Assembly: GCA_963783375.1 (NCBI GenBank)
Contig: CAWANH010000028.1
Span: forward strand, 288,001 to 352,000
DNA from: Candidatus Eiseniibacteriota bacterium
GTDB lineage: Bacteria > Eisenbacteria > RBG-16-71-46 > JABDJR01
Reading direction: 5' to 3'
Length of the DNA: 64,000 bases
Shown here: positions 9,954-42,561 of the stretch, in pieces
Layout of the letters: each line of letters opens with the position of its first letter
Numbering within the stretch: the stretch's first letter is position 1
Made by a program: the position numbers and the translations under genes
Notes under the pieces: generated by a model
What the model saw: the letters and a program-made list of their open reading frames with translations, nothing else
Told to the model about the DNA's origin: nothing
Database searches by the model: none

Positions 9954-11335
9954 GCCGTCGGGAGGCGGATCTCGAACACCGTGCGCCCGGGGGCCGAGTC
10001 CACCCTGACCTCGCCGCCGTGGCGCTGGGTCACGATCCGCTGCACGATGTCGAGGCCGAGGCCCGTTCCCTCCCCCACGTCCTTGGTGGTGAAGAAGGGC
10101 TCCCAGATCCGTCCCTGCGCCTCGTCGGGAATGCCGGGTCCGTCGTCCTCGATCTCCACCCGCACCGCGCCCTCGCTGCGCATGGTGCGAACCTGGAGGC
10201 GCCCCCCCTTCCCCACCGCATCCACCGCGTTCTCCAACAGGTTCATCCACACCTGGTTCAGCTCGCCGGGATACGCGTTGACGGGGGCCACGCCGTCGGC
10301 ATAGCTCCGCGTCACCGTGATCCCCATCGCCCGGAACCGCGACGCCAGCACGGTGATGGTGGCGTCGATCCCGTCGTGGATGTCGGTGGGGCGCTTCTCC
10401 GGAGCCTCGTCCATGCGGGAGTAGGACTTGACCGCGGCCACCAGCTCGGAGATGTGCAACGCCGACGCCTCCGCCTCCTCGAGCATCCCGTGCACGGAGA
10501 GGTCGGCGGCGAGCCAGGCGAAGGCGACCCCGAGGTGATCGGGATCGATCCCTTCCAGGGCGCCCTCCGCCGTTTCCGGGCCCAGGCCGGCGGAGACGAA
10601 GGCTTCGGAGGCCACCCAGGGTTCGGGCACGCCGTGCCGGATCAGGACGGCGCCCCAGGCTTCCTCCTGCTCGCTCCGGGCCAGCGGGTCCAGGCCGGCC
10701 GCGGCGGTCCGGTCCACCCGGGCGCGAATTCCGGTCAGGATCCGCATCCGCTCCGGGTCCGTCCCCAGGGCGGCCAGGTCCAGGGTCAAGCCCTCCAGCT
10801 CTTCCATCCTCCGCCGGAGCTCCCCCACCGAGCGGCGGAGAGCGGCGGCCGGGTTGTTGAGCTCATGGGCCAACCCGGCGGAGAGCTTCCCCAGGGCCAT
10901 GAGTTTCTCGCGTTGCTGGTCGGAACGGGCGGTCTCGCGCACGCGGTCGGCAATGGCGGCCACCAGCCGCGGCTCCAGCTCCGGAATCAACCGGAGCATC
11001 TCCGGGAAATCGGTGACGGGGAGGAGAAGCACCCGGCTCGGCACCACCGCCCGACCGGTGACCGGGATCCGCTTCATGCGGGAGTGGGGGAGCATTCCCG
11101 TCAGCTCTCCCTGCTTCCGCACGTAGAGCCGGCCGTCGGAGGGGCCGCGTTCCACCCGGGCGTGCACCTCCCCCTCCAGAACCACGACCATCGTTTCGGG
11201 GAGGTCGCCCTCTCTGAACACGATCCCGCCGGTGTCGAGCGACATCTCCTGCGAGTGGTCCGCGATCCAGTCGAGCTGAGGCGGGGTCAATCCAGCGAAG
11301 ACCGGGATTCCCTCGATCTCTTCGCGGAGGGTCAT
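9950..11335 (-). CDS. Sensor histidine kinase with N-terminal cNMP-binding domain
   Basis: N-terminal cNMP-like domain; H-box LAHELNNP; NQVWMNLLENA, DDGPGI, FFTTK and GTGLGL. Confidence 0.9.
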   Translation of the reverse strand: MTLREEIEGIPVFAGLTPPQLDWIADHSQEMSLDTGGIVFREGDLPETMVVVLEGEVHARVERGPSDGRLYVRKQGELTGMLPHSRMKRIPVTGRAVVPSRVLLLPVTDFPEMLRLIPELEPRLVAAIADRVRETARSDQQREKLMALGKLSAGLAHELNNPAAALRRSVGELRRRMEELEGLTLDLAALGTDPERMRILTGIRARVDRTAAAGLDPLARSEQEEAWGAVLIRHGVPEPWVASEAFVSAGLGPETAEGALEGIDPDHLGVAFAWLAADLSVHGMLEEAEASALHISELVAAVKSYSRMDEAPEKRPTDIHDGIDATITVLASRFRAMGITVTRSYADGVAPVNAYPGELNQVWMNLLENAVDAVGKGGRLQVRTMRSEGAVRVEIEDDGPGIPDEAQGRIWEPFFTTKDVGEGTGLGLDIVQRIVTQRHGGEVRVDSAPGRTVFEIRLPTA

Positions 11336-12992
11336 AGCGTGCTCAGGTGGCGGTGGACGAAGCTCACCACGGTGGACCCTTCCCCCACGCCCGAGGCCAC
11401 CCGCTTCATGGAGCCCTTGCGGACGTCTCCGGCCGCGAACACCCCGGGTACGCTGGTCTCGAGCAGGAACGGGTCGCGGTCCAGAGGCCAGCCGCGCGGG
11501 CGGCCCCCCTCCGGCACCAGCTCGGGGCCGGTGAGGATGAACCCCGCGGGATCGCGCGCCACCGCGCCATCCAACCAGTCGGTACGGGGTACCGCGCCGA
11601 TGAAGATGAAGAGGCCGGCGGCGGGAACGGTTTCGACGCCGCCGGACTCCACGTCCTTGAGCTCCAGGGACGTGAGCGACCGATCCCCCGAGGCACCGGC
11701 GATCTCGGTTCGGGTGCGGACGCCAATGTTGGCGGTGGTCTCGATCCGGTCCACCAGGTAGCTGGACATCTTGGCCCGCAGGTCGTCGCCCCGGATGACC
11801 ACGGTGACCCGGGAAGCGAACTGCGCGAAGTGGAGCGCGGCCTGGCCGGCGGAGTTCCCCCCCCGACCACGTACACTTGCTGGTCGCCATAGGCGGCGGC
11901 CTCGGCCATGGAGGCTCCGTAGTACACACCCGCTCCCGAGAACTCCTCCAACCCGTGCGCCTCGAGCAGGCGGTAGGAGACTCCGGTGGCGATGAGGAGC
12001 GCGTGACAGGACACTTCGCTCCCGTTCCCCAGGCGAAGCCGCCGGTAGGGGCCGTCCATCACCAGCCGCGACACTTCCTGGGGGGCGAGGATCTCCGTCC
12101 CGAACCGGCGGGCCTGGGCGGTGGCGCGTCGGGCCAGGTCGGAGCCGCTCAAGCCGGCCGGAAAACCGAGGTAGTTCTCGATCCGGGAGCTTTGCCCCGC
12201 CTGCCCTCCCGGCGCCTCCTTCTCCACCAGCATCGTGCGAAGCCCCTCGCAGGACCCGTAAACCGCGGCGGCCAGTCCCGCCGGTCCGCCGCCCACGATG
12301 ATGAAGTCGTAGAAGGGGCGCTCGGCGCGCGTCTTCAAGCCCAGGCGCTCGGCGAGCACGGCGATGGTGGCCTCCTCCACCGCATCGCCGTCCGGGCACA
12401 GCGCGAGGGGGAGGCCGGCCCCGGTCAGCCCCAGCTCCTTCAGGAGGCGGCCGGCCAGCGGGTTGGCCTCGATGTCGAACCACTGGTAGGGGATGTTGTT
12501 CCGGGCCAGGAAGTCCTTCAGCCGATGCGTCTCCGGCGACCAGCGGTTCCCGATCAGCCGAACGCCGCCGAAGGTGGGGCGGAAGTCGGCCCTCCAGTCA
12601 TCCAGGAGATCGTCCAGGATCGGGTAGAGCCGCTCTTCCGGAGGGTTCCAGGGCTTCAATAGATAGAAATCGATCTGGGCCCGGTTGATGGCGCGGATCG
12701 CCGCCTCGGTATCGGCATAGGCGGTCAGGAGCACCCGCTTGGCCTCGGGAAAGAGATCGACCGCCTGCTCGAGAAACTCCACCCCGGTCATCTGCGGCAT
12801 GCGCTGATCCACCAGGAAGAGCGCCACCGGATCGTTCCGGCGCTTCAGGGTCTGGATCGCCTCCAGGCCCTGGGATCCGGATGCCGCTTCCACTACCCGG
12901 TAATGCTCGCCGTACCTGATACGCAGGTCGCGGGCCACGGCTTTCAGAACCTCGAGGTTGTCATCGATCGCGAGAAGAGCGGGCTTGGACAT
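11332..12992 (-). CDS. Response-regulator receiver / thioredoxin-reductase-like fusion protein (frameshifted at 11857-11864)
   Basis: REC domain (IDDN, LVDQRMP, KPW), GGGPAG and IENYLGFP. The reading VVGGG|NSAGQAA switches frame in a G8 run and continues to GVFAAGDVR..KRVASGVGEG. Confidence 0.85.
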
Positions 12993-14883: not shown

Positions 14884-15495
14884 CTAGTCGATCTCGGGGG
14901 GGCGGGCGGCCGCGCGGGCGGCGGCCAGGGTGAGGTCCAGGTATCCGGCCGCCCAGACGAACGGCGTCTCCCCCGCCTTCTTCGCGGCCCGGGGAAGCCA
15001 GGATAGCAGATGCCGCTCCACGAACTCGTGCCGGGCCCGGAGAACCTGCTCCTGAACCCCTCCCTCGCTTTCCGAATCCATCCGGCAGAGATGCGCGGTG
15101 AACTCGAGTTGATGGCGCAGATGGTCGGCGGTTTCGTTGGCTTCGCCCCGGAGCCGGAGACCGAAGCTCTTGTGGAAGAGAACGTTCTCATGGAGAACCC
15201 GAGGAACGGGGTCGCGCTTGTTGTAATGGGATTCCAGGAGCGGGACCGGGGGATGGGGAGCGCCGGCGTCGAACGCGGCGATGTACTGGGCCTCGTACTC
15301 CCCGGGAGCGTCCGGCAGGGCCGGTCCACCGGGAAGCGAAGGGTTGGCCAGGGCGCCGGTCAACCGCCGCCAGAACTCAGCGGTCTCCGGCGCGGTGAGC
15401 CAGGCCCACTGTCCGGGCCCGGGAACCCGGTAGAGATCGTGGAGGAAGAGGAACGCCGCGGCGAGATCCCCGGCTTCCAGGACGGTTCGGATCAC
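14884..15495 (-). CDS. Molybdoenzyme-specific chaperone (TorD/NarJ/DMSO reductase type II delta family)
   Basis: Motifs PLLESHY, ETADHLRHQLEF and FVERHLLSWLP; GTG start overlaps the stop of the gamma gene (GTGA). Confidence 0.85.
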   Translation of the reverse strand: MIRTVLEAGDLAAAFLFLHDLYRVPGPGQWAWLTAPETAEFWRRLTGALANPSLPGGPALPDAPGEYEAQYIAAFDAGAPHPPVPLLESHYNKRDPVPRVLHENVLFHKSFGLRLRGEANETADHLRHQLEFTAHLCRMDSESEGGVQEQVLRARHEFVERHLLSWLPRAAKKAGETPFVWAAGYLDLTLAAARAAARPPEID

Positions 15496-16226
15496 GGGGT
15501 CACCTCGTACCAGAGGCTGTAGAACTTGAGCCCCGAACGCTGGTCGCGGTCCCCGTCCCAGACCGCGAAGGCCACGGGGGTGCCGGGGGCCGGAACGGGG
15601 AGCTCGAACACGACTTCCCATCCTTCTCCGGTCCGCCTCATCGTCCCGGGAAAGGAAGCCCCGGTTCCCTCCACTGTTCCCCGCCCCGCCCCGCCAAGAA
15701 CCTCGAAGCCCCGGGCGCGGTTCCAGTAGTACAGGTCCACCGGGTTGTCCCGGTCTCCCATCATGACCGCCGGAAAGCTTCCCGTGGGGCCCTGGGACCG
15801 CGGCACCATGACGCAGGCCGCGTCGGCGAACCGCTCGATGTCCCGGGAGTGCTCCTTGTAGATGTGCGTTTCCCCGCCGTCGGGATACCGGGCGGGGGGG
15901 CGAGGATCGCTGTCGGTGGCGTCGGTCCAGCGGAGCCGGACGAAGAGCGAATCCCCGCTCTGGATCAGGGCGACCCCGGCGGTGGGACGGTACCCGTCGT
16001 CGGTCGGGTCGCCCTCGTAGATGGGTGGGGTCCGGTTCATGTGGATCGGGATCTCGCCGGCCCGCGCCCATTCCGGGCCCTCTCCGGCCCGAAGGACCGA
16101 GGGCGCGGCGGAAACCACCGCCACCGGGAGAGGGAGCCCTCCGTCTTTCCCCACCCCCGGCCCCGCGCCCGCGACGCCGGCGGCGATAACCAGGACTCCC
16201 ACGGTCAGGATGATCACGCGCTTCAT
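15492..16226 (-). CDS. DMSO reductase type II gamma subunit (ethylbenzene-dehydrogenase-type heme b, DOMON-like), periplasmic
   Basis: Sec signal peptide; LFVRLRWTDAT, FADAACVM, VMMGD (Met ligand), AFAVWDG...RSGLK (Lys ligand). Confidence 0.85.
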   Translation of the reverse strand: MKRVIILTVGVLVIAAGVAGAGPGVGKDGGLPLPVAVVSAAPSVLRAGEGPEWARAGEIPIHMNRTPPIYEGDPTDDGYRPTAGVALIQSGDSLFVRLRWTDATDSDPRPPARYPDGGETHIYKEHSRDIERFADAACVMVPRSQGPTGSFPAVMMGDRDNPVDLYYWNRARGFEVLGGAGRGTVEGTGASFPGTMRRTGEGWEVVFELPVPAPGTPVAFAVWDGDRDQRSGLKFYSLWYEVTP

Positions 16227-16239
16227 GGACGACCTCCGT

Positions 16240-17607
16240 TCAGCACCAGTCGTCGCCTCCATCGGAAGGAGCGGGAGGAGCGGCCGCCGTGCACTCGGGC
16301 GCCAGGGAACAGCTCGAGCAGGCTTCATCGGGCGGGGCGGGAACCGGGGGTGACGGGTTCCCCGCGCGACGCCGGCGCGACGCCCCCACACCGGTCGCGA
16401 GCCCGAATGCGGCCCGAACCGGGCCTGGAATGCCCCCCCGACCGCGCCGGTCGCGCTTTCCCCCGTCGCCACCGGGCGCCGGGCTCTCGCCCTCCGCATC
16501 GCGGAGCGCGGCATGTTCGCCTGCCGTCTTCGCGCCGGGGGTCCCCAATTCGGTGAGCCCCGGACCCGGCTCGTATCCTTCCACGCGTCTCTTCACGTCC
16601 TCGGGAGCGTCCTTCAGCACCTCGCGAGGGGCCACGCGGAAACGCACCGAGGCGTCGCGCCCGATCAGGAGCTGGAGCAACTCACTCTTCTCCCCGGACT
16701 GCGCCCGCTTCAGCTCCCCTTCCAGCCGGTGGATCACCGTCACCACCTCGGGGCCGAAGAGGTACTTCAGGTAGTCAAGAGGCAGCCGCGGATCCTCCAG
16801 AACGCTGTTACCCGCGTTCCCCGACTTGGGAGGATTGAACGGGGGCACGTAGTACACGTTGGGAGAGGTGCCCTTCTCGGGGAAGAGGCCGAGAGCCACC
16901 TTGTACTTGATCACCAGTTTGTGCACCGGGGACTCTGGGTCGTCGAGAAGGCCCAGGAAGCGGATCCGGCCCGGACACTGGGCGGCGCAGGCGTTCACCT
17001 GCCCCTTCTCCAGACGCGGGTAGCAGAAGATGCACTTCTCGCTCTTTCCCTTGACCTCGTTGAAATAGATCTTCTTGTAGGGACAGGCCTTCACGCAGTA
17101 GCGATAGCCGCGGCAGCGCTCCTGATCGATGAGAACGATCCCGTCCTCCTCGCGCTTGTAGATCGCCTTCCGCGGACAGGCCTCGAGGCACGCCGGGTGG
17201 GTGCAGTGGTTGCAGATCCGGGGAAGGTAGAAGAAGTAGGGGTTGGCGGTGTCCCATCCTCCGACGTCCTCGTCCCAGTTCGGCGTGTAGGTGGGCTCGA
17301 CGTTGGGCATCACCGGCTTCCGCTTCCCCTCGAAGAGCCGCTGAGCGTAGTCGTACTCGAAGGCCTCGCCGTAGTCCTCCTTGGAGGGGAGGGCCGATGG
17401 GCGAAGATGGCGTTGCTCGTCGAACCCGCCCCCCAGGGTGTGCCACCCCCGGGGATAGCCGGCGCCGGGATGGGTCTCCACGTTGTTCCAGTACATGTAG
17501 TCCATGCCGTCGCCGTCGGTCCATTGCTTCTTGCAGGCCAGGGTGCAGGTCTGACACCCGATGCACTTGTTCAGGTCCATGACCATGGCGTACTGATGCT
17601 TGGACAC
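16240..17607 (-). CDS. narH: DMSO reductase type II beta (Fe-S) subunit, NarH-like
   Basis: Motifs MDLNKCIGCQTC, WNNVET, PRICNHCTHPACLEACP, CRGYRYCVKACPY and KCIFCYPR..CAAQCPGR. Confidence 0.9.
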   Translation of the reverse strand: MSKHQYAMVMDLNKCIGCQTCTLACKKQWTDGDGMDYMYWNNVETHPGAGYPRGWHTLGGGFDEQRHLRPSALPSKEDYGEAFEYDYAQRLFEGKRKPVMPNVEPTYTPNWDEDVGGWDTANPYFFYLPRICNHCTHPACLEACPRKAIYKREEDGIVLIDQERCRGYRYCVKACPYKKIYFNEVKGKSEKCIFCYPRLEKGQVNACAAQCPGRIRFLGLLDDPESPVHKLVIKYKVALGLFPEKGTSPNVYYVPPFNPPKSGNAGNSVLEDPRLPLDYLKYLFGPEVVTVIHRLEGELKRAQSGEKSELLQLLIGRDASVRFRVAPREVLKDAPEDVKRRVEGYEPGPGLTELGTPGAKTAGEHAALRDAEGESPAPGGDGGKRDRRGRGGIPGPVRAAFGLATGVGASRRRRAGNPSPPVPAPPDEACSSCSLAPECTAAAPPAPSDGGDDWC

Positions 17608-17609
17608 GG

Positions 17610-20582
17610 TCAGCTCCTCCCGTCGCGCTCGTAGCCGGCCACCGGTCCGTCGTACCGGGCGAAGTCCACCTTGATATCGCGGTTGTTCCCGGTCGGACCC
17701 CAGTAGTTGAGCCGGAAGTTCAGATGGCCGTAGCCGCCGATGAGCTGGGTGGGCTTGATCTTGATGTAGGTGAGGGACTGCCAGCCCCCTTCCTGGAATC
17801 CCAGGTACTTCTCCCATCCGTGGTACATGGTGAGCCGGCCTTGTTTCTCTCCCGGCAGGATCTTGGCCTTCACGACCGCCGATCCCTGTGCGTTGAAGAT
17901 CTTGACCCAGTCGTTGTCCTTGATCCCCCGGGACTTCGCGTCGCCGGGATGGATGTAGACGATGGGGAGCCCCCGCTGGAGCCGAAGGAGATAGCGGTTG
18001 TCCCGCCAGGTGGAGTGGATCGACCATCGTCCATGAGGGGTGTTCCAGAAGAACGGGTACTGGGGATCGTCCTGGGGGCCCTTGTGCACGGGGAGCGTCT
18101 CGCCGAGCGCCCGGTACCACTCGTGGTCCACGTAGAACTGCTGCCGGCCGGTCAGCGTCCGCCACGGCCGCTTCTTCTCCACCTGATGGGTGAAGGGCGT
18201 GTAGGCGCGGCCTTCCTCGATCTCGCTGTTCCAGACTTCGGGATCGATTCCCACGAAGCGCTGGGGGGACTCCTGGAGGCCGTGATAGGTCATCCCCCGG
18301 GTCTCGGCGGAGTTGGCCAGGATGAAGTTCGCCGCATCCTCGTCGGTGACGATCTTCCCTTTCCCCGACCAGTCGTCGTGGATATGGGTGAAATCCCGGC
18401 TCCAGCCCAGCTCCTTGTCCTCGAAAGGCTTCAAACCCCGTCGACGGGCCACTTCCTGGATCTTCGCGGCCAGGGCGCCGAACGCGTCCCAGTCGGTCTT
18501 GGATTCGAACAGCGGGTCGAGCACCTTGGAGAACGGGTGCATGTAGGAATGGCAATCGGTGGAGTTGAGATCGGTCTTCTCATAGTAGCTGGAGGCCGGG
18601 AGCACCACGTCGCTGTAGAGGGCGGTGGTGTCCATGCGATAGTTCACATCCACGATCAAGTCGAGGTCTTTCCAGAGGGAACGGATGATGGCTTCGTTTC
18701 CTTTGGCCTGGTTCAGGTAGTTGGCCCGCCACACGATCAGGGCGCGGGGCTTCCGCGGGAGATCGTGCATCTTCTCCGGGGTGAGCTTCTCCCAGTCGTT
18801 CCGGGGCCAGAGCGGCATCCAGCCCTTCCGGACCGATTCCAGGATGTAGTGTTCGATCGGCTTCCCGGCGATCCGGTGCGGATCCCGCATGGAGGAGTGG
18901 CAGTAGGTCCATAGGGTCGTGTTCTGGAACCGCTGCTTCTTCCCTCCCTCGGGAAAGGCCAGCATCTTGAACCCGTGCTCGGGCCACACCCGCTCCTGGC
19001 CCACGTAGTGGTTGAACCCGCCGCCGTTCTTCCCCACGTTCCCGGTGAGGGCCACGACGAGAATGAGCGCTCGGTTCAGGAGATCGTTGTGGTACCAGTG
19101 GTTGACCCCGGCGCCGTGAATGATCATGGCCGGTTTCCGGGTGAACCCGCGCGCGAACTGGATCAGGTCCTTCTCGGGAATGCCGCAGGCCGCCGCCGCC
19201 CGGGCCGGGGTGTAGAGGGGATCGGCCAGGGTTTCCTGGAGCATGGCGAAAACCGTGGTCACCTCCACCGGCTTCCCGTCGGCCAGGGTCACCTTCCAGC
19301 TCCCTTCGAGATCCGGATCCACGCTTCCGAAGCGCAGGGAACGGGCGGTGGAACCCATGGTTCCAGGGGCCTGGACCGGGCGGCCGGACGCGGCGTCGTG
19401 GACATAGAAGACGGATTCGGGGTCGATCGCGGCGGGTTCCCCGTCGCCCGAGTCTCCGGCGGTTCCCTGGTTCCAGGGGGAGACCCGCGGGGCCTCCCCC
19501 CGGTCCCCGGGGCGCAGGTGGGATGCGCGCAAGAACTCGCCGGTGTCGGTCCGCACCAGGAAGGGAAGATCGGTCTGCTCCTTGGCGTAGGGAACGTCCA
19601 TGTGGCCGTTCTCGATCAACCAGCGGCAGACCGCCAGGGCCAGGACGATGTCCATTCCCGGCTTGATCGGGACGTACTGGTCGGCATGGATGGAGCTGGT
19701 GTTGAAATCGGGGGACACGCAGGCCACGGTGGCGCCGTTGTAGCGGGCCTCCCAGGCGAAGTGGGCGTCGGGGATCCGGGTGGCGTTGATGTTGGAGCCC
19801 CAGAGCACGATGTGCTTCGCGTTGAACCAGTCCGCGCACTCGGAGGACTCGGTCTGAACTCCCCAGGTGATGGGTTCCCCGGGGGGGAGATCGCAGTACC
19901 AGTCGTAGAACGAGGCGACCACCCCGCCGAGGTAGTGGGCCACGCGGATGCCCGAACAGAAGCTCACCGGGCTCATGGCCGGGATGACCGAGAAGAACGT
20001 ATTGGTGTCGGGGCCGTGTTCGTAGACGTTGTCGAGGAGCTTCCCCGCGATGAGCTCGAGGGCCTCGTCCCAGGAGGCGCGGCGCCACTTGCCTTCGCCG
20101 CGTTCCCCCACCCGGATGAGGGGGTACTTGATCCGCTGGGCGCCGTAGACGTACTCCACGAAGCACGCGCCCTTCTGGCAGCCCCGAGGGTTGTAGTCGG
20201 GGAGATCGAAGGAGATGCGGGGGTAATCGGCCGCCTGCTCCTCCCGGAGCATGATGCCGTCCTTCACGTACACCTTCCACGAGCAGGAGCCGGTGCAGTT
20301 GGCGGAATGGGTGGAGCGCACCACCCGATCCCAGGAGAAGCGTTTCTGATAGAGATCCTCCCACCCACGGTAGGGATAGGTCCGGAGAGGATCAACGTCC
20401 AGGATCTCGAATTCCTCCAGATCCGCTCCCGCCGGGCGGACCAGGAGGGCGGCCAGGCCGAGCCCGGTTCCGGCTCCCACCTGAAGGAAACGCCGCCGGG
20501 AGAGGGGCTTCTTCCCCTCGACTCCATCGCGGTCTCCGGTTTCGCTCGCCGGTCGTTCGTCGTGGATGAGCTTGTCGGTCAT
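17610..20582 (-). CDS. narG: Tat-exported Mo-bisPGD DMSO reductase type II alpha subunit, periplasmic nitrate reductase (pNarG)-like
   Basis: Tat SRRRFLQ; FS0 motif HSANCTGSC...RGCQKG; Asp ligand FYDWYCDLP; TRIPDAHF; NHYVGQE; TPHGRWSIHS. Substrate is inferred. Confidence 0.85.
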   Translation of the reverse strand: MTDKLIHDERPASETGDRDGVEGKKPLSRRRFLQVGAGTGLGLAALLVRPAGADLEEFEILDVDPLRTYPYRGWEDLYQKRFSWDRVVRSTHSANCTGSCSWKVYVKDGIMLREEQAADYPRISFDLPDYNPRGCQKGACFVEYVYGAQRIKYPLIRVGERGEGKWRRASWDEALELIAGKLLDNVYEHGPDTNTFFSVIPAMSPVSFCSGIRVAHYLGGVVASFYDWYCDLPPGEPITWGVQTESSECADWFNAKHIVLWGSNINATRIPDAHFAWEARYNGATVACVSPDFNTSSIHADQYVPIKPGMDIVLALAVCRWLIENGHMDVPYAKEQTDLPFLVRTDTGEFLRASHLRPGDRGEAPRVSPWNQGTAGDSGDGEPAAIDPESVFYVHDAASGRPVQAPGTMGSTARSLRFGSVDPDLEGSWKVTLADGKPVEVTTVFAMLQETLADPLYTPARAAAACGIPEKDLIQFARGFTRKPAMIIHGAGVNHWYHNDLLNRALILVVALTGNVGKNGGGFNHYVGQERVWPEHGFKMLAFPEGGKKQRFQNTTLWTYCHSSMRDPHRIAGKPIEHYILESVRKGWMPLWPRNDWEKLTPEKMHDLPRKPRALIVWRANYLNQAKGNEAIIRSLWKDLDLIVDVNYRMDTTALYSDVVLPASSYYEKTDLNSTDCHSYMHPFSKVLDPLFESKTDWDAFGALAAKIQEVARRRGLKPFEDKELGWSRDFTHIHDDWSGKGKIVTDEDAANFILANSAETRGMTYHGLQESPQRFVGIDPEVWNSEIEEGRAYTPFTHQVEKKRPWRTLTGRQQFYVDHEWYRALGETLPVHKGPQDDPQYPFFWNTPHGRWSIHSTWRDNRYLLRLQRGLPIVYIHPGDAKSRGIKDNDWVKIFNAQGSAVVKAKILPGEKQGRLTMYHGWEKYLGFQEGGWQSLTYIKIKPTQLIGGYGHLNFRLNYWGPTGNNRDIKVDFARYDGPVAGYERDGRS

Positions 20583-20592
20583 GTTCCGTTCC

Positions 20593-22170
20593 TCACCGGG
20601 GGTCCGCCGCGGCCCGGTCCGGAGACTCCGGCGCGGGCCCGACGGAGGCCGAAGCGGTGGTTCCCGCCGCCGGCGTCCCCAGGGATTTGACGTAGGCCAC
20701 CAGGTCGTTGATGTCGGTTCGGTCCAGGCCCCCCCAGCCGGGGGCGAGGAAGGCGGGCATGGCGGTGTCGGTCCGGCCGTAGGCCACCGTCCGGAACACG
20801 AGTTCCCGGCTCGCGTTGTGCTGGAAGGTGGAGTTGGCGAGGCTCGGTCCCAGAACGCCCAGGCCGGTCGGGCCGTGGCAACCGGCGCAGTTCTTCAGGA
20901 AGAGCACGGAGCCGCGTTCCGGATCGCCCGGCCCGGGGTCGGCGATCAGGGCGGAATCGGCCCCGGCGGCGGTCTCGGAGACGGTGACCGGTCGCCCCAG
21001 CACGTACCCGGTCAACCGGGCGATATCGTCCTCGGAGAGCCCCCCCGCCTCGGGGCCCCAGGCCGGCATGAGGGTGCCGGGGCGCCCGTCCCGGATCATG
21101 GCGGCCACGAAGGCGGGGTCGGCGATCTCGCGAAAGGTTTTCCCGCGAACGGCGGGGATGAAGCGGGCGAAGAACTTGTCGTACCGGCCGCTGGATCCGG
21201 TGTCGTGGCACTTGGCGCAAAGCTCGGTGTAAAGGGCTTCGGCCGGCCTCGGCTCGGGCCGCGACCGATGGTATATCTCCAGGTGCTTCTCCGGGCTCAC
21301 GTAGGAACCGGGGAAATCGCGTTCCTGGAGCGACAGCACGAAGGAGGTGAGGGCGACGGTCTCCCGGCGGTTCAGGCCGGGGTTGGGCATCCGGCTCCCC
21401 GCCACCACCGCCTGGGGATCCGCGAAGTGCTCGATCAACCACTCCGGCACGGTGTGGGGGCCCTGGATGGCCGCGAAGGGGAGCTGACCCTTCACCTTCA
21501 GCCCCTCGTTGTCCAGGGCGGGGCCCAGGGCCCCCCCCAACCGGTTCAGTTTGTGGCAGCTCCGGCACCCCTTGGTCTCGAACAGCGCCGCTCCGCGTGC
21601 GTACACCTCGCCCCCCCGGTCCGCGACCTCGGCCGGCGTGTGGCAGAGCCCGCAGGCGGACTGGGTGAGGTCGAGGGGAAGGAGGGGATAATCCCAGTGA
21701 CGGTCCTCGGCCTTGGCGTCGGCGAAATCCGTGGCCCGTCCCTGGCCCCGGTGGCAGACGGTGCAACCGAATCGGGCGTCCTCGTGCCAGGAAAGGTACC
21801 GTCCGGGATGTGTGCGGTAGGGATTCGGCTCCTTCACCATTCGGGGGTCGTCGTAGCCGGTATGACAGCTCACGCACCGATCCACCGTCCCGAGATCGGG
21901 AACCACGATCTGGCGCATCTGAACCTCGAAGTTCTCGGCCAGCTTCTTCCCCCAGGGGTCCGTGGCCTTCTCCCTCAGGATCTTCCCGTATCGGATCTGG
22001 TAGAGACGCCAAGGAGCGGCGTAGTTCTCCTTGATCGCCGCCCCGGCCAGGACGGCGAGGGTGGCCAGGCTGACCGCGAGGAGCCAGATCTTGACCCGGC
22101 GGTCGGTGCGGGCCGCCTCCTCGCGGACCTCGGGAGTGAGCCGTTCATCCTGTGGGTTGTGACTAGTCAT
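20593..22170 (-). CDS. Membrane-anchored hexaheme cytochrome c
   Basis: N-terminal TM helix; six CxxCH motifs: CVSCH, CTVCH, CGLCH, CRSCH, CAKCH, CAGCH. Confidence 0.9.
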   Translation of the reverse strand: MTSHNPQDERLTPEVREEAARTDRRVKIWLLAVSLATLAVLAGAAIKENYAAPWRLYQIRYGKILREKATDPWGKKLAENFEVQMRQIVVPDLGTVDRCVSCHTGYDDPRMVKEPNPYRTHPGRYLSWHEDARFGCTVCHRGQGRATDFADAKAEDRHWDYPLLPLDLTQSACGLCHTPAEVADRGGEVYARGAALFETKGCRSCHKLNRLGGALGPALDNEGLKVKGQLPFAAIQGPHTVPEWLIEHFADPQAVVAGSRMPNPGLNRRETVALTSFVLSLQERDFPGSYVSPEKHLEIYHRSRPEPRPAEALYTELCAKCHDTGSSGRYDKFFARFIPAVRGKTFREIADPAFVAAMIRDGRPGTLMPAWGPEAGGLSEDDIARLTGYVLGRPVTVSETAAGADSALIADPGPGDPERGSVLFLKNCAGCHGPTGLGVLGPSLANSTFQHNASRELVFRTVAYGRTDTAMPAFLAPGWGGLDRTDINDLVAYVKSLGTPAAGTTASASVGPAPESPDRAAADPR

Positions 22171-22179
22171 CGCCGGACC

Positions 22180-23727
22180 TCAATGCAAGGGCCACTGGGA
22201 CTTGCTCCAGTAGAACCCCCAGTTGGGACCCCTGAGCTCGGAGCCCACGTAGGTCAGGATCACGAAACCGACCAGGAAGCAGGTGAAGAGCGCGATCGCC
22301 GACATGCGGGTGGAGTTCGTCCGCTTCAGGACCCCCAAAGACCAGAGAACATAGGCCGCGGTGAGGAGCGTCCCCGGGTTCACCGCGATAATGAGCAGCT
22401 GGGGAACGTGGGGGAACCAGTTCCGGATCCAGCCGAAGGTGACGGGGACCGCCACCGCCAGGATCGCGGTCAGCGCCGCGAAGATCAGGCTCTGGAGCGC
22501 CACCCGCTTCCCCCGGGATCCGCTCAGGTAGACCCCGGCGTCTTCGGGCTCCCGGTCGAGATAGGGGATCAGAGCCAGGCCCAGAACCGCCACCGCGGGG
22601 ATCACGAGCCCCCCCATGAAGGCGGAGTAGGACACCAGCTCCTGAAGCCCCAGGAAGTACCACGGCGCCTTGGCCGGATTCTCGGGAACGCTGGCGTTGG
22701 CCAGCTCCTTCAGGGGGGCGTCGAAGAAGATTCCAAGGAGAACCACCACCAGCATGCAGGCCATGAAGACCAGGAGTTCGGCCCGGAGCAGGTAGGGAAA
22801 GCTCGGCACGGTCTCGGAGGGATCGAGGTTGGCGGCGGGACGACGGTCCCGAACCAGGCACATGAGCCCGAAGGTCTTCCGGGTGGCCTCGGCGGGGGCC
22901 CGCGCCGGCGTGCCGGAGGGAGGCGCTCCCTTCCCCGCCGGCGTGGACGCCGTCCCCGGCCGGCCCAGTCCCCCATCCTTGCGGATCCGCCAGAAGTGGA
23001 CGCTCAGAAGCGCGGCCACCGCCAGGGGGAGCACCATCACGTGGAGCAGGTAGAACCGGATCAACGCTTCCGGGCCCACGCCGGTCGCCCCGAGCAGGAG
23101 TTCCTTCTGGAATCCACCGGGATCGAAGAAGCGGGTGACGCCCAGGGCGTCGGTCAGCTCACGCGGCGATCCCGCGATGTTGCTCCCGATGGTGATGGCC
23201 CAGTAGGCGAGCTGGTCCCAGGGAAGAAGGTAGCCGGTGAAGGAGAGCCCCAGGGTGAGGATGAAGAGCCCCATCCCCATCAGCCAGTTGAACTCCCGCG
23301 GCTTCTTGTAACTCGCGGTATAGAACACCCGCACCATATGGAGAATCACCGTCACCACCATGAGGTGGGCGGACCAGCGGTGGATGTTCCGGATGAAGCG
23401 TCCGGTGGGAACGGCGTAGTGGATGTCCTTCATGCTCTGATACGCCTGATCCACCGAGGGTTTGTAGTAGACCATGAGGAGCACCCCGGTCACGACCAGG
23501 ATGAGGAAGAAGCTCAGGGTGGCGATCCCCATGGCCATGGTGGTCGAGAACCGGAGCGTGCGGATGTGGGTCCGCGTCGAGTGGAGGTGGAGGTACACGT
23601 TGGAGAACACGGTCTGGGAGCGGCTGCGGTCGGTGACCGGCGGGCCGTGACGCACCAGGGACTCCTTGAAGTTCCGGGGCAGGCGTCGCAGGTTTTCCTT
23701 GAAGGCGTCCAGACCGATGCTGCTCAT
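22180..23727 (-). CDS. Cytochrome b of a Rieske/cytb complex (b6 and subunit IV fused)
   Basis: Heme ligands in RNIHRWSAHLM..LHMVRVF and RFYLLH..SVHFWRI; TGYLLPWDQLAYWA; NPAKAPWYF. Confidence 0.92.
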   Translation of the reverse strand: MSSIGLDAFKENLRRLPRNFKESLVRHGPPVTDRSRSQTVFSNVYLHLHSTRTHIRTLRFSTTMAMGIATLSFFLILVVTGVLLMVYYKPSVDQAYQSMKDIHYAVPTGRFIRNIHRWSAHLMVVTVILHMVRVFYTASYKKPREFNWLMGMGLFILTLGLSFTGYLLPWDQLAYWAITIGSNIAGSPRELTDALGVTRFFDPGGFQKELLLGATGVGPEALIRFYLLHVMVLPLAVAALLSVHFWRIRKDGGLGRPGTASTPAGKGAPPSGTPARAPAEATRKTFGLMCLVRDRRPAANLDPSETVPSFPYLLRAELLVFMACMLVVVLLGIFFDAPLKELANASVPENPAKAPWYFLGLQELVSYSAFMGGLVIPAVAVLGLALIPYLDREPEDAGVYLSGSRGKRVALQSLIFAALTAILAVAVPVTFGWIRNWFPHVPQLLIIAVNPGTLLTAAYVLWSLGVLKRTNSTRMSAIALFTCFLVGFVILTYVGSELRGPNWGFYWSKSQWPLH

Positions 23728-23791
23728 GACCGCTTTCTTCCCCGCGGGTCGGGCTCGGATCGGGTGGGTGGGTCGACGGGTTCGTGCACGG

Positions 23792-24259
23792 TTAGGCCCG
23801 ATAGAACGTGCCCTGGGGCACTTCCCGCTTGGCGTCCACCACCAGGCTGCCGTCGGCGGCCCGCGAAACCTCGAGCCATCGGAGGGGCCTCGGAGCGGGC
23901 CCCCCCAGGACGTCGCCGACGGGGTCGAACCGCGAGCCGTGGCAGGGGCATTTGAACCCCTCCGCACTCTCCCCCACGATGCAACCCAGGTGGGTACAGA
24001 CCATGGACATGGCCGCCACTCCCCGGGGGGTGGCCATCACCCGCACGTTCCGCTCGGCGAGGATGCGGGTGGTTCCGGGGGGAAACTCCTCGGGGCGGCC
24101 GATCCGAAAACGGCTTCCCGCCTCGGGGAGGACCCGCGGCATGGGCAGGCGGACCATCCCCACGATGGAACCCAGAACCGCGGCCCCCGCCGCGGCCAGG
24201 CCGGCCAGGCTCAGGAAGTCGCGTCGGGGGAGAGGATCGGGAGTCAGTCGATCCGACAT
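23792..24259 (-). CDS. Rieske [2Fe-2S] subunit of a Rieske/cytb complex
   Basis: Tat-like PRRDFL plus TM helix; CTHLGC and CPCHGSRF; GPAPRPL. Confidence 0.93.
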   Translation of the reverse strand: MSDRLTPDPLPRRDFLSLAGLAAAGAAVLGSIVGMVRLPMPRVLPEAGSRFRIGRPEEFPPGTTRILAERNVRVMATPRGVAAMSMVCTHLGCIVGESAEGFKCPCHGSRFDPVGDVLGGPAPRPLRWLEVSRAADGSLVVDAKREVPQGTFYRA

Positions 24260-26196
24260 GCGGGCACCTCCTCGAATCGGAACCGTTCCATGGTGATGGC
24301 GCCGGTGGGGCAGCGCTCGGCGCAGAGACCGCAGCGAATGCAGAGGGTCTCGTCCTTGAGGATGGCCGAGGCCTCGACCGGATCCAGGCCGGCGAGCCGG
24401 TTGGCCACGAGCCCGGCGAGATCGTCCAGGGCCGGGTCGCCCGAAGCGGTCAGGCGGTCGGCGGAGACGATGCGGAGGCAGAGTTCGGGACAGACGTCCA
24501 CGCATCCCCCGCAGAGGATGCACCGGTCGCCGTCGAAGATGGTGTTCACCCCGCAGTCCAGACAGCGCGAGGCCTCCCGCCGGGCCTGCGCCCCGGAGTA
24601 GCCGGTCTCGACCTGGGCGCGGGGGTCCCCCATCCGGCTCTCGGGCGACGCGGTGGGGATCGGAACCCGGGAGATCCGCTCGTAGTCCGGTTCCCGCCGG
24701 TAGTCGGGAATGGCGAGATGGAGCTGGACATCCCGGTGGGTGACGGCGCGTCCGGTGAAGTCGCCGTAGATCTCCCGGGCCACCTGTTTTCCCGAGGCCA
24801 CGGCGTGGATCAGGAGTTTCGGCCCGTAGGCCAGGTCCCCGGCGACAAAGACGTCGGATGCGGAGGTGCGCCCGGTGACCCCGTCGCAGGCCAGGTATCC
24901 CCGTCCGGTCACCTCGAGCCCGTCGCGCCCGGCGTCCACGAAGGAAAGGTCCACCGCCTGGCCGACGGCGAGGAGCACGTTGTCGCAGCGGATGGTCTCC
25001 CGAACCGAGTCGTCGAACACCGGGTTGAAACGACGGTTCTCGTCGAAGACGCGCAGGCAGCGACGGAACGCCACGCCGCGTACCCGGCCCGATTGGGTGG
25101 TCAGCACCTCCACCGGGCCCAGGCTGTTCCGGCGGATGATGCCCTCTTCGTCCCCCTCGATGATTTCGGCGTCGTCCGCGGGCATCTCGTCCAGGGACTC
25201 GAGGGAGCAGAGATGGACCTCCCCCACCCCATGCTCCCGGAGCGCGGTGCGCGCGGTATCAAGGGAGATCTGCCGAAGAACCGAACGACCCACGTCGTAG
25301 GCCACGTTCCCACCTCCGATCACCACCACGCTCTTTCCGAGGGCCGGCGGACGGCCGAGCGCCACGTCGCGCAGGAATTCCACCCCACCCAGGACACCCT
25401 GGGCGTCGGCCCCGGGGAGCGGGAGAATACGGGAGCGCTTGGCCCCCACCGCGATCACCACCGCGTCGTGGCGGGCGCGGAGTTCGGAGAGCGAGACGTC
25501 TCGACCCACCTCGCAGTTCAGGACCGCCTTCACGCCCATGGCCAGGATGACCTCGACCTCCGCGTCGATCTCCTCTCGGGGCAACCGGTAGCCGGGAACC
25601 CCCAAGGCGAGCATCCCGGCGAGGACCGGCTCCATCTCGTAGATCGTGACCTCCACCCCGAGAAGGGCCAGGTCGTGGGCGGCGGCCAGTCCGGCAGGCC
25701 CACTCCCCACGATCCCCACCGAGCGCCCGACCACCGGAGAGAGGTCGCCGGTCAGAAGCGATCGGAGAATGGGGAGGAGTTCGTCCGTGTCTTCACAAGC
25801 TCGGGGAGCGTGGCGTCGGGCCGCATCCTTGAGGAACTCGATCAGGTCCCGGCCGCCGGCGGGGCGGGCCTCGGGTCCGAACGATTCGCAGACGAAGCGC
25901 TTGAGGGCCCGGATGGCGATGGGCCGGTCGATGTCGCCGCGACGGCAGGCGGCCTCGCAGGGCGCGCCGCAGATCCGTCCGCAGATCGAGGCCAACGGGT
26001 TGGGTCCCCGGGCGATGAGGTAGGCCAGCTCATCGTCGCCGGCGGCGATGGCCCGCACGTAGCCCCGGGCGTCGGTGTGAACCGGGCACGCGGCCTGACA
26101 CTTAATCTGGCTCTTCCAGTAGAAGCGGTCAGGCACGCGGACGAAGACCGGATCGATACCGTCGCTGCCTGTCGGGGGGGCTACCCGATCCACCAT
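24244..26196 (-). CDS. Cytoplasmic FAD/NAD(P)-dependent oxidoreductase with N-terminal Fe-S domain and C-terminal 2x[4Fe-4S] ferredoxin (GltD/NfnB/DsrL-like)
   Basis: CQAACP..CGRICGAPCEAAC; GSGPAG; GGGNVAYD; VFVAGD; RCLDC, CILCGGCVDVCP and CIRCGLCAERCP; no signal peptide; SD GGAGG. Confidence 0.9.
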   Translation of the reverse strand: MVDRVAPPTGSDGIDPVFVRVPDRFYWKSQIKCQAACPVHTDARGYVRAIAAGDDELAYLIARGPNPLASICGRICGAPCEAACRRGDIDRPIAIRALKRFVCESFGPEARPAGGRDLIEFLKDAARRHAPRACEDTDELLPILRSLLTGDLSPVVGRSVGIVGSGPAGLAAAHDLALLGVEVTIYEMEPVLAGMLALGVPGYRLPREEIDAEVEVILAMGVKAVLNCEVGRDVSLSELRARHDAVVIAVGAKRSRILPLPGADAQGVLGGVEFLRDVALGRPPALGKSVVVIGGGNVAYDVGRSVLRQISLDTARTALREHGVGEVHLCSLESLDEMPADDAEIIEGDEEGIIRRNSLGPVEVLTTQSGRVRGVAFRRCLRVFDENRRFNPVFDDSVRETIRCDNVLLAVGQAVDLSFVDAGRDGLEVTGRGYLACDGVTGRTSASDVFVAGDLAYGPKLLIHAVASGKQVAREIYGDFTGRAVTHRDVQLHLAIPDYRREPDYERISRVPIPTASPESRMGDPRAQVETGYSGAQARREASRCLDCGVNTIFDGDRCILCGGCVDVCPELCLRIVSADRLTASGDPALDDLAGLVANRLAGLDPVEASAILKDETLCIRCGLCAERCPTGAITMERFRFEEVPACRID

Positions 26197-26237
26197 GGAA
26201 CCTCCATCCCGGGTTCGCGATCCAATTCCGGTAGAAT

Positions 26238-26266
26238 AGGACTTGCAGGTCCTGATATCCATTTTA
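26238..26266 (-). promoter_or_regulatory. Putative promoter of the oxidoreductase-bc-nar operon (-10 TAAAAT) with a near-palindromic operator
   Basis: AT-rich island; TAAAAT at 26266-26261; AGGACTTGCAGGTCCT (26238-26253) has 14/16 dyad symmetry and lies just downstream. Confidence 0.45.
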
Positions 26267-26334
26267 TTCCTGAAAAATGACTTATCCAGAAAATCAATGA
26301 CATCTAAGCGCTTATTTAGTTGGGGTTTAGAAGG

Positions 26335-37443: not shown

Positions 37444-37447
37444 CGCC

Positions 37448-37756
37448 CTACCCCTTCAGCAAGCTGACGTTGTTGATGTCCACCGTTCCCTTTTTGCGGA
37501 AGAGATCGATGATGATGGCCAGCCCGACCGAGACTTCGGCCGCCGCCACCGCCAGAACGAAGAAGACCAGCACCTGGCCGTCCATGGAACCCAGGGACCG
37601 CCCGAAGGCGACCAGGGAGATATTGGCCGCGTTGAGCATCAACTCGATGCACATGAAGATGACCAGGAGGTTCCGGCGGAAGAGCACCCCCATCACCCCG
37701 ATGGAGAAGAGCAGCCCGGCCAGGACCTGGAAGTAGCTCAACGGGACCGCCATCAC
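37448..37756 (-). CDS. nuoK: NADH-quinone oxidoreductase subunit K
   Basis: Motifs RRNLLVIFMCIELMLNA and VAAAEVSVGLA. Confidence 0.95.
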   Translation of the reverse strand: MMAVPLSYFQVLAGLLFSIGVMGVLFRRNLLVIFMCIELMLNAANISLVAFGRSLGSMDGQVLVFFVLAVAAAEVSVGLAIIIDLFRKKGTVDINNVSLLKG

Positions 37757-38298: not shown

Positions 38299-38402
38299 GT
38301 CGTTACCCCACCCGGCGGCCGGACGTCGCCGTCCGCCGCCTATTCCTCGGACCGGCCCCCCTCCCCCTCGCCCCATCGGGCGAAACCGGGGACGCGGCCG
38401 GT

Positions 38403-41373: not shown

Positions 41374-41476
41374 GTCGTCTCTTCCTCGAGGCCGGGGACC
41401 GCCCCGGCCTTCCCCCACCACCCGTCGGGCATGGCGCGGGATCCGATCGGGACCGCCCGTCCGGCGGCGCCGGTCG

Positions 41477-42494: not shown

Positions 42495-42561
42495 GGCGCG
42501 GTCCTTGGAGACACCCCCCGCCCGATGGGTCCCGGGGCGCGGGTAACTCGCTGTGACAGAC

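Follow-up and report, generated by a model that had tools for sequence, protein, structure and literature searches.

Operon organisation and control region

Eight genes of one direction were located on the minus strand of the window, the whole stretch of 64,000 nucleotides that was analysed. The first encodes a cytoplasmic FAD/NAD(P) Fe-S flavoprotein of 650 aa (24244..26196; Pfam Fer4_20, Pyr_redox_2 and Fer4). It is followed by a Tat-anchored Rieske [2Fe-2S] protein of the S-x-F type (155 aa, 23792..24259; Pfam Rieske and PDB matches), a fused cytochrome b (515 aa, 22180..23727), assigned by alignments and by Pfam and NCBIfam ExtP/ExtQ-like matches under the cut-off, and a membrane-anchored hexaheme cytochrome c (525 aa, 20593..22170) having six CxxCH motifs, one transmembrane helix and matches to Pfam Cytochrom_C, CBB3 and C7. 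The remaining genes encode a Tat-exported Mo-bisPGD alpha subunit of the periplasmic Nar type (990 aa, 17610..20582; TIGR03479, 1112 bits against a cut-off of 985), a NarH-like Fe-S beta subunit (455 aa, 16240..17607; TIGR03478, 506 bits, cut-off 481), an EbdC-like periplasmic heme-b gamma subunit (244 aa, 15492..16226; Pfam EB_dh above cut-off, TIGR03477 at 86 bits below its cut-off of 170) and a NarJ/TorD-family chaperone (203 aa, 14884..15495; Pfam Nitrate_red_del above cut-off, TIGR03482 at 85 bits below its cut-off of 152). The successive junctions measure -16, 64, 9, 10, 2, 13 and -4 nt, the first being a 16-nt overlap of the flavoprotein and Rieske genes. The coordinates thus bear out the initial annotation, which had described eight co-oriented genes with overlaps or gaps of 2-64 nt; NarI and NrfD, which it had stated to be absent, gave no family match among the eight genes in profile searches. 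Together these genes make up a single, conserved operon.

Twin-arginine motifs were present on the Rieske protein and on alpha, and the hydrophobic residues 4-22 near the N-terminus of gamma represent a signal or an anchor. Inspection of the flavoprotein and beta sequences revealed no export signal. The GC-poor gap ahead of the flavoprotein gene (26197..26334, minus strand; 42% GC over the 144 bases measured against 69% for the genome) is likely, from its sequence, to be the promoter region of the operon. It was searched for FNR, CRP and NsrR boxes and none was recognisable; a weak sigma70-like site was located at 26288-26261 (9/12 matches), three such sites occurring in the region against 1.0 expected.

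The Rieske/cytochrome b module and its flavoprotein

The Rieske protein retained both ligand boxes and the Tat anchor, and its best PDB matches are both from Kuenenia (9rk4, E 1.4e-20; 9rk3, E 2.7e-15), Kuste4569 and Kustd1480 being its nearest counterparts. The S-x-F motif was found in 68 of 71 close relatives, and the predicted potential is mid-high to high. The cytochrome b consists of a b6 part fused to a five-helix subunit IV, its predicted model showing nine long helices (pLDDT 69.8). The heme ligands are H116, H130, H229 and H244 and the quinol-oxidation motif APWY occupies residues 354-357; the four histidines and APWY were found in 37/37 relatives. The CxGG of heme cN is replaced by AMGI, the cysteine being missing in the same number of relatives (37/37), which would weaken the case for an inner quinone site. 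Residue E317 is kept in 36 of 37 relatives, so that an inner quinone site may nevertheless exist. This residue presumably aligns with the inner-site Asp of bc1, and Arg appears to stand where bc1 has His in that site, on the bc1 numbering that we assume. The hexaheme cytochrome combines three closely spaced hemes with three class I c domains; six hemes were counted in all 15 homologues checked, 14 of which adjoin a Nar of the same type.

The flavoprotein has a GltD/NfnA-like core followed by a C-terminal 2x[4Fe-4S] domain, with 9bov and 9bp5 (E 3e-85) as the closest PDB entries and a pLDDT of 86.7 for the predicted structure. It carries four Fe-S clusters, one of which lacks a Cys and has Lys instead; this Lys99, at the fourth ligand position, is kept in 37/37 relatives, and the Fe-S, FAD and nucleotide motifs are all invariant among relatives. 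An acidic S/C-L-E motif (E333 in 36/37 relatives) replaces the NADP-type Y-R-R, which is present in the flavoproteins of loci L115 and L105, and NAD is favoured over NADP on this single motif. The initial annotation had offered NAD(H) or ferredoxin as the cytoplasmic partner; because the nucleotide-binding domain is complete, NAD(H) is the likelier of the two and ferredoxin the less likely. The flavoprotein is very probably a subunit of the bc module, and there is a slight leaning towards a role in NAD+ reduction.

By their sequences, the first four genes are an anammox-type Rieske/cytochrome b module. The complexes Kuste4569-4574 and Kustd1480-1485 of Kuenenia stuttgartiensis likewise contain a Rieske protein, a b6-type cytochrome b, a five-helix subunit IV, a multiheme c and a cytoplasmic NfnA-like flavoprotein with Lys at one Fe-S ligand position (Hauser 2025, PMC12954380; see also Kartal 2013 and de Almeida 2016, as cited therein). 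They also share the S-x-F Rieske type and a candidate His plus Arg/Lys heme site of the dimer. In the present cytochrome b, H47 and R249/K250 are invariant and form a candidate dimer-interface heme site, with a spacing close to that of the novel heme site modelled in Hauser 2025. The H47/RKDG motif was also found in loci L109 and L110, both lacking an adjoining flavoprotein, and is therefore not specific to a wire through the flavoprotein. The Kuenenia complexes differ in that their cytochrome b is split and binds heme cN covalently, whereas the present chain is fused and has lost the cysteine. They also lack a Mo nitrate reductase as acceptor in the same operon, Kustd1480-1485 having no proposed acceptor and Kuste4569-4574 an HAO-like protein. 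The cytochrome b can provisionally be placed with subfamily G (Dibrova 2017), or the APWY clade (Kao and Hunte 2014), by its motifs, by the Rieske PDB match and by a helix C segment nearly identical to KKU19708.1 in the alignment of Dibrova 2017. Since long, Cys-less members are listed inside subfamily G (Dibrova 2017), the fused chain and the lost CxGG would mark a different branch and not an exclusion.

The molybdenum enzyme and its exchange among relatives

The alpha subunit carries the His/Cys FS0 motif and the Asp Mo ligand, and its Asp-ligand motif YDWYCD and YVGQE are common to NarG and haloarchaeal pNar. In a FastTree phylogeny of 42 sequences (no PcrA included) it formed its own clade (support 1.0) inside a larger group that also takes in the cytoplasmic and the haloarchaeal NarG, and the NXR-like clade was separate. 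As judged from these motifs, the last four genes are a Tat-exported periplasmic Nar with a NarG-type active site, and nitrate can be named as the probable substrate with good confidence. That the true substrate is a different oxyanion, such as perchlorate, chlorate or selenate, would fit the closest PDB entries, 5e7o and 4ydd, which scored 894 and 889 bits against 530 for NarG and which we take to be perchlorate reductase PcrA (labelled in the files simply as a DMSO reductase of type II), and it would fit the TIGR03479 score above cut-off where the narG model stayed below. This reading is very improbable, as alpha has Glu (GQE) in place of the gating Trp (GQW) of 4ydd, its motifs differ from those of ClrA (36% identity), and the host genome gave no match to the chlorite dismutase family (PF06778), a gene of which occurs in 4 of 13 carrier genomes but never beside the operon. 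Membership in PcrABCD was rejected on the Glu and the PF06778 result. A Nitrospira/anammox-type NXR was also rejected, on the length of 990 aa against about 1150 aa for NxrA, the separate clade and the low score to 7b04 (224 bits, where the NXR-like partner of L103 reached 864).

Among known systems, PcrAB (4ydd/5e7o, on our assumption) and ClrABDC (NC_014908.1) share the periplasmic type II DMSO reductase alpha and beta, and ClrABDC also the heme-b gamma and chaperone; the Clr cluster is without Rieske/cytochrome b and flavoprotein. The operon of Haloferax mediterranei (NC_017943.1; narB-narC-orf-narG-narH-gamma-narJ) holds Rieske, cytochrome b, alpha, beta, gamma and chaperone in the same order, is also without NarI, and exports by Tat an alpha that is 46-47% identical to the present one and shares its active-site motifs (Baymann 2012 PMC3509893; Bonete 2008 PMC2483277). 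It has neither flavoprotein nor cytochrome c, an ordinary Q-cycle is proposed for it, and its Rieske protein is of the low-potential G-F type (Baymann 2012 PMC3509893). Its cytochrome b belongs to another, PDWF-type lineage (27% identity); given the 27-29% identity to haloarchaeal cytochromes b and the APWY and S-x-F motifs of the present locus, the likeness in gene order is convergent for the bc half. The proposal in the initial annotation that haloarchaeal and anammox designs are joined here thus stands for an anammox-type, flavoprotein-bearing Rieske/cytochrome b module joined to a periplasmic Nar, and falls for a haloarchaeal origin of the bc part. For the Nap cluster with Rieske/cytochrome b of Caldithrix abyssi (PMC5317091) and the Rieske/cytochrome b with Nar of Methanoperedens (PMC4683180), electrons are likewise proposed to pass from Rieske/cytochrome b over multiheme c to a nitrate reductase in the periplasm; the passages on these clusters mention no NAD(P) flavoprotein, and the reductase is Nap or a separately encoded Nar.

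The complete gene order was found again in loci L001, L002, L004, L005, L208 and L210 and in six metagenome loci, so the arrangement is not due to chance. It is kept in several groups of uncultured bacteria; no cultured host of this exact version was found. Among 67 close cytochrome b relatives, the flavoprotein adjoins Rieske in all 54 loci with enough upstream DNA, and the adjacency on which the initial annotation had mainly staked its reading therefore held. A nitrate-type Mo enzyme lies downstream in 36/36 loci with informative downstream DNA: 23 are NXR-like, with Kuenenia NxrA as the nearest solved structure, 11 are of the same type as the query and 2 are NapA-like. NapA-like partners with NapGH occur on the same module, among them that of the relative whose cytochrome b is most similar to the query (75%); a cbb3 oxidase is encoded with a related module. 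The comparison shows a constant front module with interchangeable reductases, which makes it a general plug-in front end and no anammox speciality. The NXR-like pairing in 23/36 loci cautions against inferring nitrite oxidation from such genes. Of 10 informative loci with more remote cytochromes b (<55% identity), 5 have no adjoining flavoprotein. Genes for qNor, Ric and Rrf2 flank some relatives. The drawing in Fig. S1 of Dibrova 2017 may include this cluster; our literature search found no functional description of the eight-gene arrangement.

Direction of electron flow

The host has futalosine menaquinone genes, two complex I gene sets, an ACIII-like complex with aa3 and a plain bc complex with aa3, so neither a further NADH dehydrogenase nor a generic quinol oxidase is needed. 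It looks like a facultative aerobe, and the host genes examined showed no sign of an anammox type metabolism. The bc module is, with high probability, the electron source of Nar. The most likely reading, held tentatively, is that menaquinol oxidation splits its electrons between nitrate and NAD+. Menaquinol would be oxidised at the outer site of the anammox-type complex; the first electron would likely pass over Rieske, the hexaheme cytochrome, gamma and beta to the periplasmic nitrate reductase, and the second would move inward over the b hemes and the flavoprotein Fe-S chain to NAD+, which would replace a second quinone. NapA-like and cbb3 enzymes are one-way electron acceptors, and their presence as partners (NapA-like with NapGH) argues that the outer branch runs toward the acceptor. 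At standard potentials the bifurcation leaves a surplus of 136-256 meV at a proton-motive force of 180-120 mV. The Rieske protein of Kustd1480, also S-x-F, was measured at +335 mV (Hauser 2025, PMC12954380), and our own arithmetic from the symmetry rule in that paper would place heme bP at about -410 to -480 mV, low enough to reduce NAD+.

Several points speak against bifurcation. To our knowledge, NAD(P)+ reduction has been demonstrated for no member of this enzyme type, anammox included. NADH is usually in excess in heterotrophs, NXR-like enzymes are the commonest partner, the solved structure nearest to alpha is not NarG, and other NrfD-type quinol modules of the host could feed Nar. Bifurcation also requires that quinone reduction at the inner site be blocked, a difficulty noted as unsolved (Hauser 2025, PMC12954380), and APWY has been argued to mark reverse-running complexes (Kao and Hunte 2014).

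The main rival, less likely but to be taken seriously, leaves the outer branch unchanged and casts the flavoprotein as an NAD(P)H dehydrogenase integrated in the complex and supplying the second electron to the inner quinone site, similar to the role ascribed to ferredoxin-NADP reductase on b6f. The resulting self-contained NADH-to-nitrate Q-cycle, of low yield (2 charges per NADH), would be steeply downhill (surplus 1120-1240 meV), would explain the retained E317, would suit a heterotroph getting rid of NADH and agrees with the view that oxidoreductases of this kind are modular dehydrogenases attached to cytochrome b (Dibrova 2017). It would, however, lose energy compared to complex I plus Q-cycle, and two complex I sets are present in the host, with NuoF-family genes in 13/13 carrier genomes (a common gene and weak evidence); the heme-cN cysteine is lost, a high-potential-type Rieske is unneeded for such a mode, and the mode is held unlikely for the anammox homologues (Hauser 2025, PMC12954380). 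Considerably less probable is an ordinary Q-cycle feeding Nar in the way suggested for haloarchaea, with the flavoprotein as a low-flux accessory valve, sensor or poising device: the haloarchaeal operons and half of the distant loci do without a flavoprotein, yet its retention in 54/54 loci of the close clade, its invariant motifs and the lost cysteine are hard to reconcile with an accessory role.

The initial annotation had also offered reverse running and a direct NADH-to-nitrate wire. Periplasmic nitrite oxidation, with electrons pushed uphill to menaquinone and NAD+, would accord with the chemical reversibility of Nar-type enzymes, with the frequent, NxrA-related NXR-like partners and with APWY as a proposed sign of reverse complexes (Kao and Hunte 2014). 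It is improbable, as NapA-like and cbb3 partners sit on the same or related modules, alpha clusters with Nar enzymes apart from the NXR-like clade, no RuBisCO was found in the 97% complete host genome, and driving nitrite plus NADH to 2 menaquinol would cost 136-256 meV. A quinone-free wire, for which the one operon encodes all carriers, is the least likely of all, since the quinol-oxidation motif is invariant and outward electron flow discharges the membrane potential.

Quinol-based bifurcation to NAD(P)+ has been proposed for the anammox Rieske/cytochrome b complexes from Rieske potentials and models (Hauser 2025, PMC12954380). In the present operon the transcription unit also includes what Kustd1480-1485 lacks, the enzyme for a defined high-potential acceptor, nitrate, that is simple to assay; with menaquinol, nitrate and NAD+ a clean test of bifurcation thus becomes available. 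A bolder and rather doubtful extension is an 'NAD-cycle' in place of the Q-cycle, in which complex I would return the NADH formed by bifurcation to menaquinol, the same module, with heme cN lost, serving nitrate-type Mo enzymes of three unrelated kinds in many phyla. If this is true, many 'nxrA' genes of non-nitrifiers would be nitrate reductases of this machine. Such a cycle was computed to move six charges per net menaquinol-to-nitrate turnover against two, with a surplus of +268 meV at 120 mV, +88 meV at 150 mV and -92 meV at 180 mV.

Gene order and distribution of the operon

The eight co-oriented genes of the initial annotation were recovered in the same order on the minus strand, running from 26196 to 14884 with junctions of -16, 64, 9, 10, 2, 13 and -4 nt. 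Family scans gave gene 1 as a flavoprotein of GltD/NfnA-like type whose C terminus carries a ferredoxin domain, genes 2-4 as Rieske protein, fused cytochrome b and a cytochrome c with six CxxCH motifs, and genes 5-8 as the alpha, beta and gamma subunits of a type II DMSO reductase with its chaperone. Alpha and beta scored above the NCBIfam cut-offs; gamma and the chaperone scored above the Pfam cut-offs but below those of NCBIfam. Twin-arginine motifs were found on the Rieske protein and on alpha, and no export signal was found on the flavoprotein sequence. A GC-poor gap lies upstream of the flavoprotein gene, which is therefore probably the first of the transcript. Upstream of the operon, comparison with FNR, CRP and NsrR-like consensus boxes gave nothing closer than 4 mismatches and hence no such box; no palindrome was shared among the 8 upstream regions compared, and the promoter and terminator scan gave a result at or near chance. 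No sequencing run was listed for the operon, which bears neither way on its expression. Elsewhere in the window, a response-regulator/thioredoxin-reductase-like gene (11335-12992, minus strand) is read in two frames, broken at an eight-G run near 11860 that is probably a homopolymer read error.

The alpha search covered 4 of the 64 parts of the genome collection; 79 loci were kept, 12 of them mapped. Alpha identity was 63-74% in five of the 79, with all eight genes in order in four of these five; in the fifth, contig ends fall inside the flavoprotein and alpha genes. The five are labelled as Ignavibacteria, Acidobacteriota, Terriglobia and unassigned bacteria, and the named close alpha proteins come from Zixibacteria, Hinthialibacter, Omnitrophota, Eisenbacteria, Acidoferrales and Armatimonadetes. 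Phylum searches yielded five further loci: two complete, one starting within the Rieske gene, one on a contig too short, and one with a distant enzyme in a different gene order. The operon is real and conserved, and the CMD gene upstream and the GYD gene 145 nt downstream lie outside the conserved unit. Within the host's phylum, alpha was present in 3 of 206 genomes and in 0 of the 7 that belong to the host's family; in the phylum of L004, a locus with relatives of the operon genes, it was present in 4 of 401. The operon is therefore considered patchily distributed and probably moves horizontally.

Both halves were known separately: flavoprotein-bearing subfamily G complexes appear in the available text of Dibrova 2017, and Rieske/cytb-fed pNar in that on haloarchaea (e.g. 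Baymann 2012, PMC3509893). The joined operon is functionally undescribed, in agreement with the earlier statement that no characterised system was known with the complete arrangement. No description was found in the literature searched; subscription papers and bioRxiv supplements lie outside that scope and may bear on novelty. It is not described in the accessible sections of PMC5317091, PMC3903129, PMC3578206, PMC6050957, PMC12823411, PMC4683180, PMC6896113, PMC6094997 and PMC8906906. The available text of Dibrova 2017 reports that long cytochromes b of subfamily G occur in 'large conserved operons' whose function is unknown; the accessible main text has no match to 'molybd'. The cluster may be drawn in Fig. 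S1 of that paper, since the neighbours in the legend include PF07992, PF14691, PF09459, PF02613 and PF00384, and KKU19708.1 in its alignment resembles the cytochrome b clade of the query. What is new here is that a single operon is predicted to couple an anammox-type Rieske/cytb module with periplasmic Nar.

The bc half and the reductase half

Judged by sequence, the bc half is anammox-type. The two best PDB matches of the Rieske protein were Kuenenia Kuste4569 and Kustd1480, and an S-x-F pair was present in the query and in 68 of 71 close relatives. The S-F Rieske class lies near +260 mV in the consulted part of Kao and Hunte, and +335 mV was measured for Kustd1480 in that of Hauser 2025 (PMC12954380). 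In cytochrome b (22183-23727, minus strand), the four heme histidines and APWY were found in 37/37 sequences. The model has nine long helices, of which the subunit IV part accounts for five, matching the anammox models; the fold search with it returned the cytochrome b fold only. H47 and R249/K250 are invariant, with a spacing similar to that at the extra dimer-interface heme modelled for the Kuenenia complexes in the available text of Hauser 2025; the motif also occurs in L109 and L110, two related loci with no adjoining flavoprotein. In contrast to the Kuenenia complexes, the query has a single fused chain, with AMGI in place of the heme-cN CxGG; the Cys is absent in 37/37, while E317 is kept in 36/37. 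C483 in the last helix is near-invariant (36/37), as is the C-terminal H515 (36/37); either could possibly serve as an alternative heme attachment or ligand.

The best PDB match of the flavoprotein was 9bov/9bp5, the template named in the available text of Hauser 2025 (PMC12954380). Lys occupies the fourth ligand position in 37/37 sequences. An acidic S/C-L-E replaces the Y-R-R of NADP enzymes (Glu in 36/37, the locus L115 being the exception), which by the general Rossmann rule suggests NAD(H) as partner. Unnamed ESM Atlas clusters share the architecture of the cytochrome c.

The best PDB match of alpha was 5e7o/4ydd, which we take to be perchlorate reductase; Glu stands at the position of the 4ydd gating Trp. 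Its FS0, channel and Asp-ligand motifs are the same as in cytoplasmic and haloarchaeal NarG, unlike ClrA, and alpha formed its own clade inside the Nar group in a tree of 42 sequences built without PcrA. In the 50%-representative search with cluster naming (10 of 150 named), characterised enzymes outside the query's cluster came no closer than 41-47% identity. Haloferax NarG is 46-47% identical to alpha and is followed by the same genes in the same order, but Haloferax cytochrome b is just 27% identical to the query's, and its operon lacks flavoprotein and cytochrome c. The haloarchaeal Rieske protein is of low potential and the cytochrome b of actinobacterial origin in the consulted part of Baymann 2012 (PMC3509893). 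The proposal that the locus joins both designs thus stood for the anammox-type Rieske/cytb with a periplasmic Nar, and did not for a haloarchaeal bc half. Two other candidates were rejected: the Nitrotoga-type NXR, since Kitzinger 2018 places it sister to the Nitrospira/anammox clade, and Methylomirabilis DAMO_0768 near a Nar cluster, which is a Nitrobacter-like NarGHI.

Partners of the module

A metagenome scan with the cytochrome b alignment covered 8 of 64 parts, and the best 80 of 534 relatives were kept. The close set comprised 67 of these with at least 55% cytochrome b identity, a threshold set after the list was seen. The flavoprotein, claimed earlier to belong with the bc genes, adjoins the Rieske gene in 54/54 loci with at least 900 bp upstream (13 of the 67 had too little upstream DNA). 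A Mo enzyme lies downstream in 36/36 informative loci (31 of the 67 were too short); it is NXR-like in 23, of the query's type in 11 and NapA-like, with NapGH, in 2. Among the 13 more distant loci, the flavoprotein was found in 5 of 10 informative ones and a Mo enzyme in 0 of 7. The nearest match of the NXR-like partner was Kuenenia NxrA. The NapA-like partner is nearest to solved NapA structures and keeps NARxCMxSA, with a score under the NCBIfam NapA cut-off. A cytochrome b tree was built from 51 sequences (44 clusters at 90%, without Kuenenia cytochrome b). Partners within the query's subclade (support 1.0) were mixed, with pNar in five cases, Nap-like in three and NXR-like in one, and the sequence nearest to the query was Nap-linked. 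One acidobacterial genome has the flavoprotein-Rieske/cytb module three times: once as in the query, once with a cbb3-type oxidase and once with octaheme c only.

Several variants were observed besides. L101, L102, L103 and 23 metagenome loci have the four-gene module before NXR-like alpha-beta-gamma-chaperone, the commonest version in the sample examined. L100:2392-14232, L113 and L114 have it with decaheme c, NapA-like enzyme and NapG/NapH, hence two quinol-oxidising devices within one operon. L204:1951-15046 (genome G063) holds an oxygen-coupled version, in which Rieske, cytochrome b and heptaheme c are strung together with cbb3-type CcoN/CcoO, a flavoprotein of the same type, CcoG and a copper ATPase. 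A distant flavoprotein-Rieske/cytb module lies in L104:2271-15008 and L105:565-10180, accompanied by hexaheme and heptaheme c and a Tat-type Nas/Nap/Fdh-like Mo enzyme; Y-R-R of the NADP type is present in the flavoprotein of L105. L106, L107, L108, L111 and L205 carry a split-cytochrome-b module with octaheme c and no Mo enzyme, mostly preceded by a monoheme protein of 440-570 aa and a cupredoxin-like gene. At L007:2892-10419 (labelled Syntrophus), a Rieske protein is accompanied by a split cytochrome b that has CxGG, by octaheme c and by the alpha subunit of a type II DMSO reductase at 35% identity, with no flavoprotein seen there.

Electron flow and the host genome

The value of the operon is that it allows a standing bioenergetic proposal to be tested. 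The outer branch would most likely run from menaquinol through Rieske, hexaheme c, gamma, beta and Mo to nitrate; the outward direction is fixed for the module family by the occurrence of Nap-like and cbb3 partners. For the inner branch, reduction of NAD+ via the flavoprotein is favoured, because a Rieske of high-potential type with menaquinone would, under the symmetry rule given in the available text of Hauser 2025 (PMC12954380), place heme bP very low. The loss of the heme-cN anchor argues likewise, as does complex I, which already oxidises NADH more efficiently. Standard potentials are -320 mV for NAD, -74 mV for MK and +420 mV for nitrate. At standard potentials, the bifurcating reaction was computed to leave 136-256 meV at a proton-motive force of 180-120 mV, and the full cycle via complex I, moving six charges, to be feasible at 120-150 mV and not at 180 mV. 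Against NAD+ reduction, we know of no such complex for which NAD(P)+ reduction has been demonstrated, heterotrophs usually hold spare NADH, and an inner quinone site may still exist. APWY is also tied to reverse flow in the consulted part of Kao and Hunte. Because of these points, the division of menaquinol electrons between nitrate and NAD+ is put forward tentatively, at a confidence somewhat short of even, and input from NADH to the inner branch instead is regarded as the main, though less likely, alternative. The reverse reaction was computed to be uphill at standard potentials.

The host genome is 97% complete, and its gene content gives the picture of a facultatively aerobic heterotroph. 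Futalosine menaquinone genes and two complex I gene sets are present. The window holds nuoA-C-E-F-H-J-K-L-M-N (32289-42581, minus strand), a complex I operon without nuoB, D, G and I; NuoD and NuoG-like genes lie on contig C29 at 224-227 kb and the second set on C17 at 125-130 kb. Of two aa3-type oxidases, one adjoins ACIII-like genes and the other plain bc; the subunit I gene on C28 (355580-358251) is broken into two frames, and a plain Rieske/cytb-c fusion adjoins it just past the window end. A qNor with Ric and Rrf2 was found, as were MoCo genes (mobA-like, moaC, mogA/moaB, moeA) at 43608-44216 and 53806-56171 of the window. The host genome showed no chlorite dismutase, NirS, NirK, NosZ or RuBisCO and no convincing NrfA; a candidate for nitrite removal is L195, an octaheme protein of HAO-like type. 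The operon is the only Nar-type enzyme among the host's seven molybdopterin-family matches. At least 3 heme motifs were found in 36 host ORFs, and very large multiheme cytochromes with 51, 23 and 42 CxxCH lie at C28:1119317-1127190 and C29:1462915-1466112.
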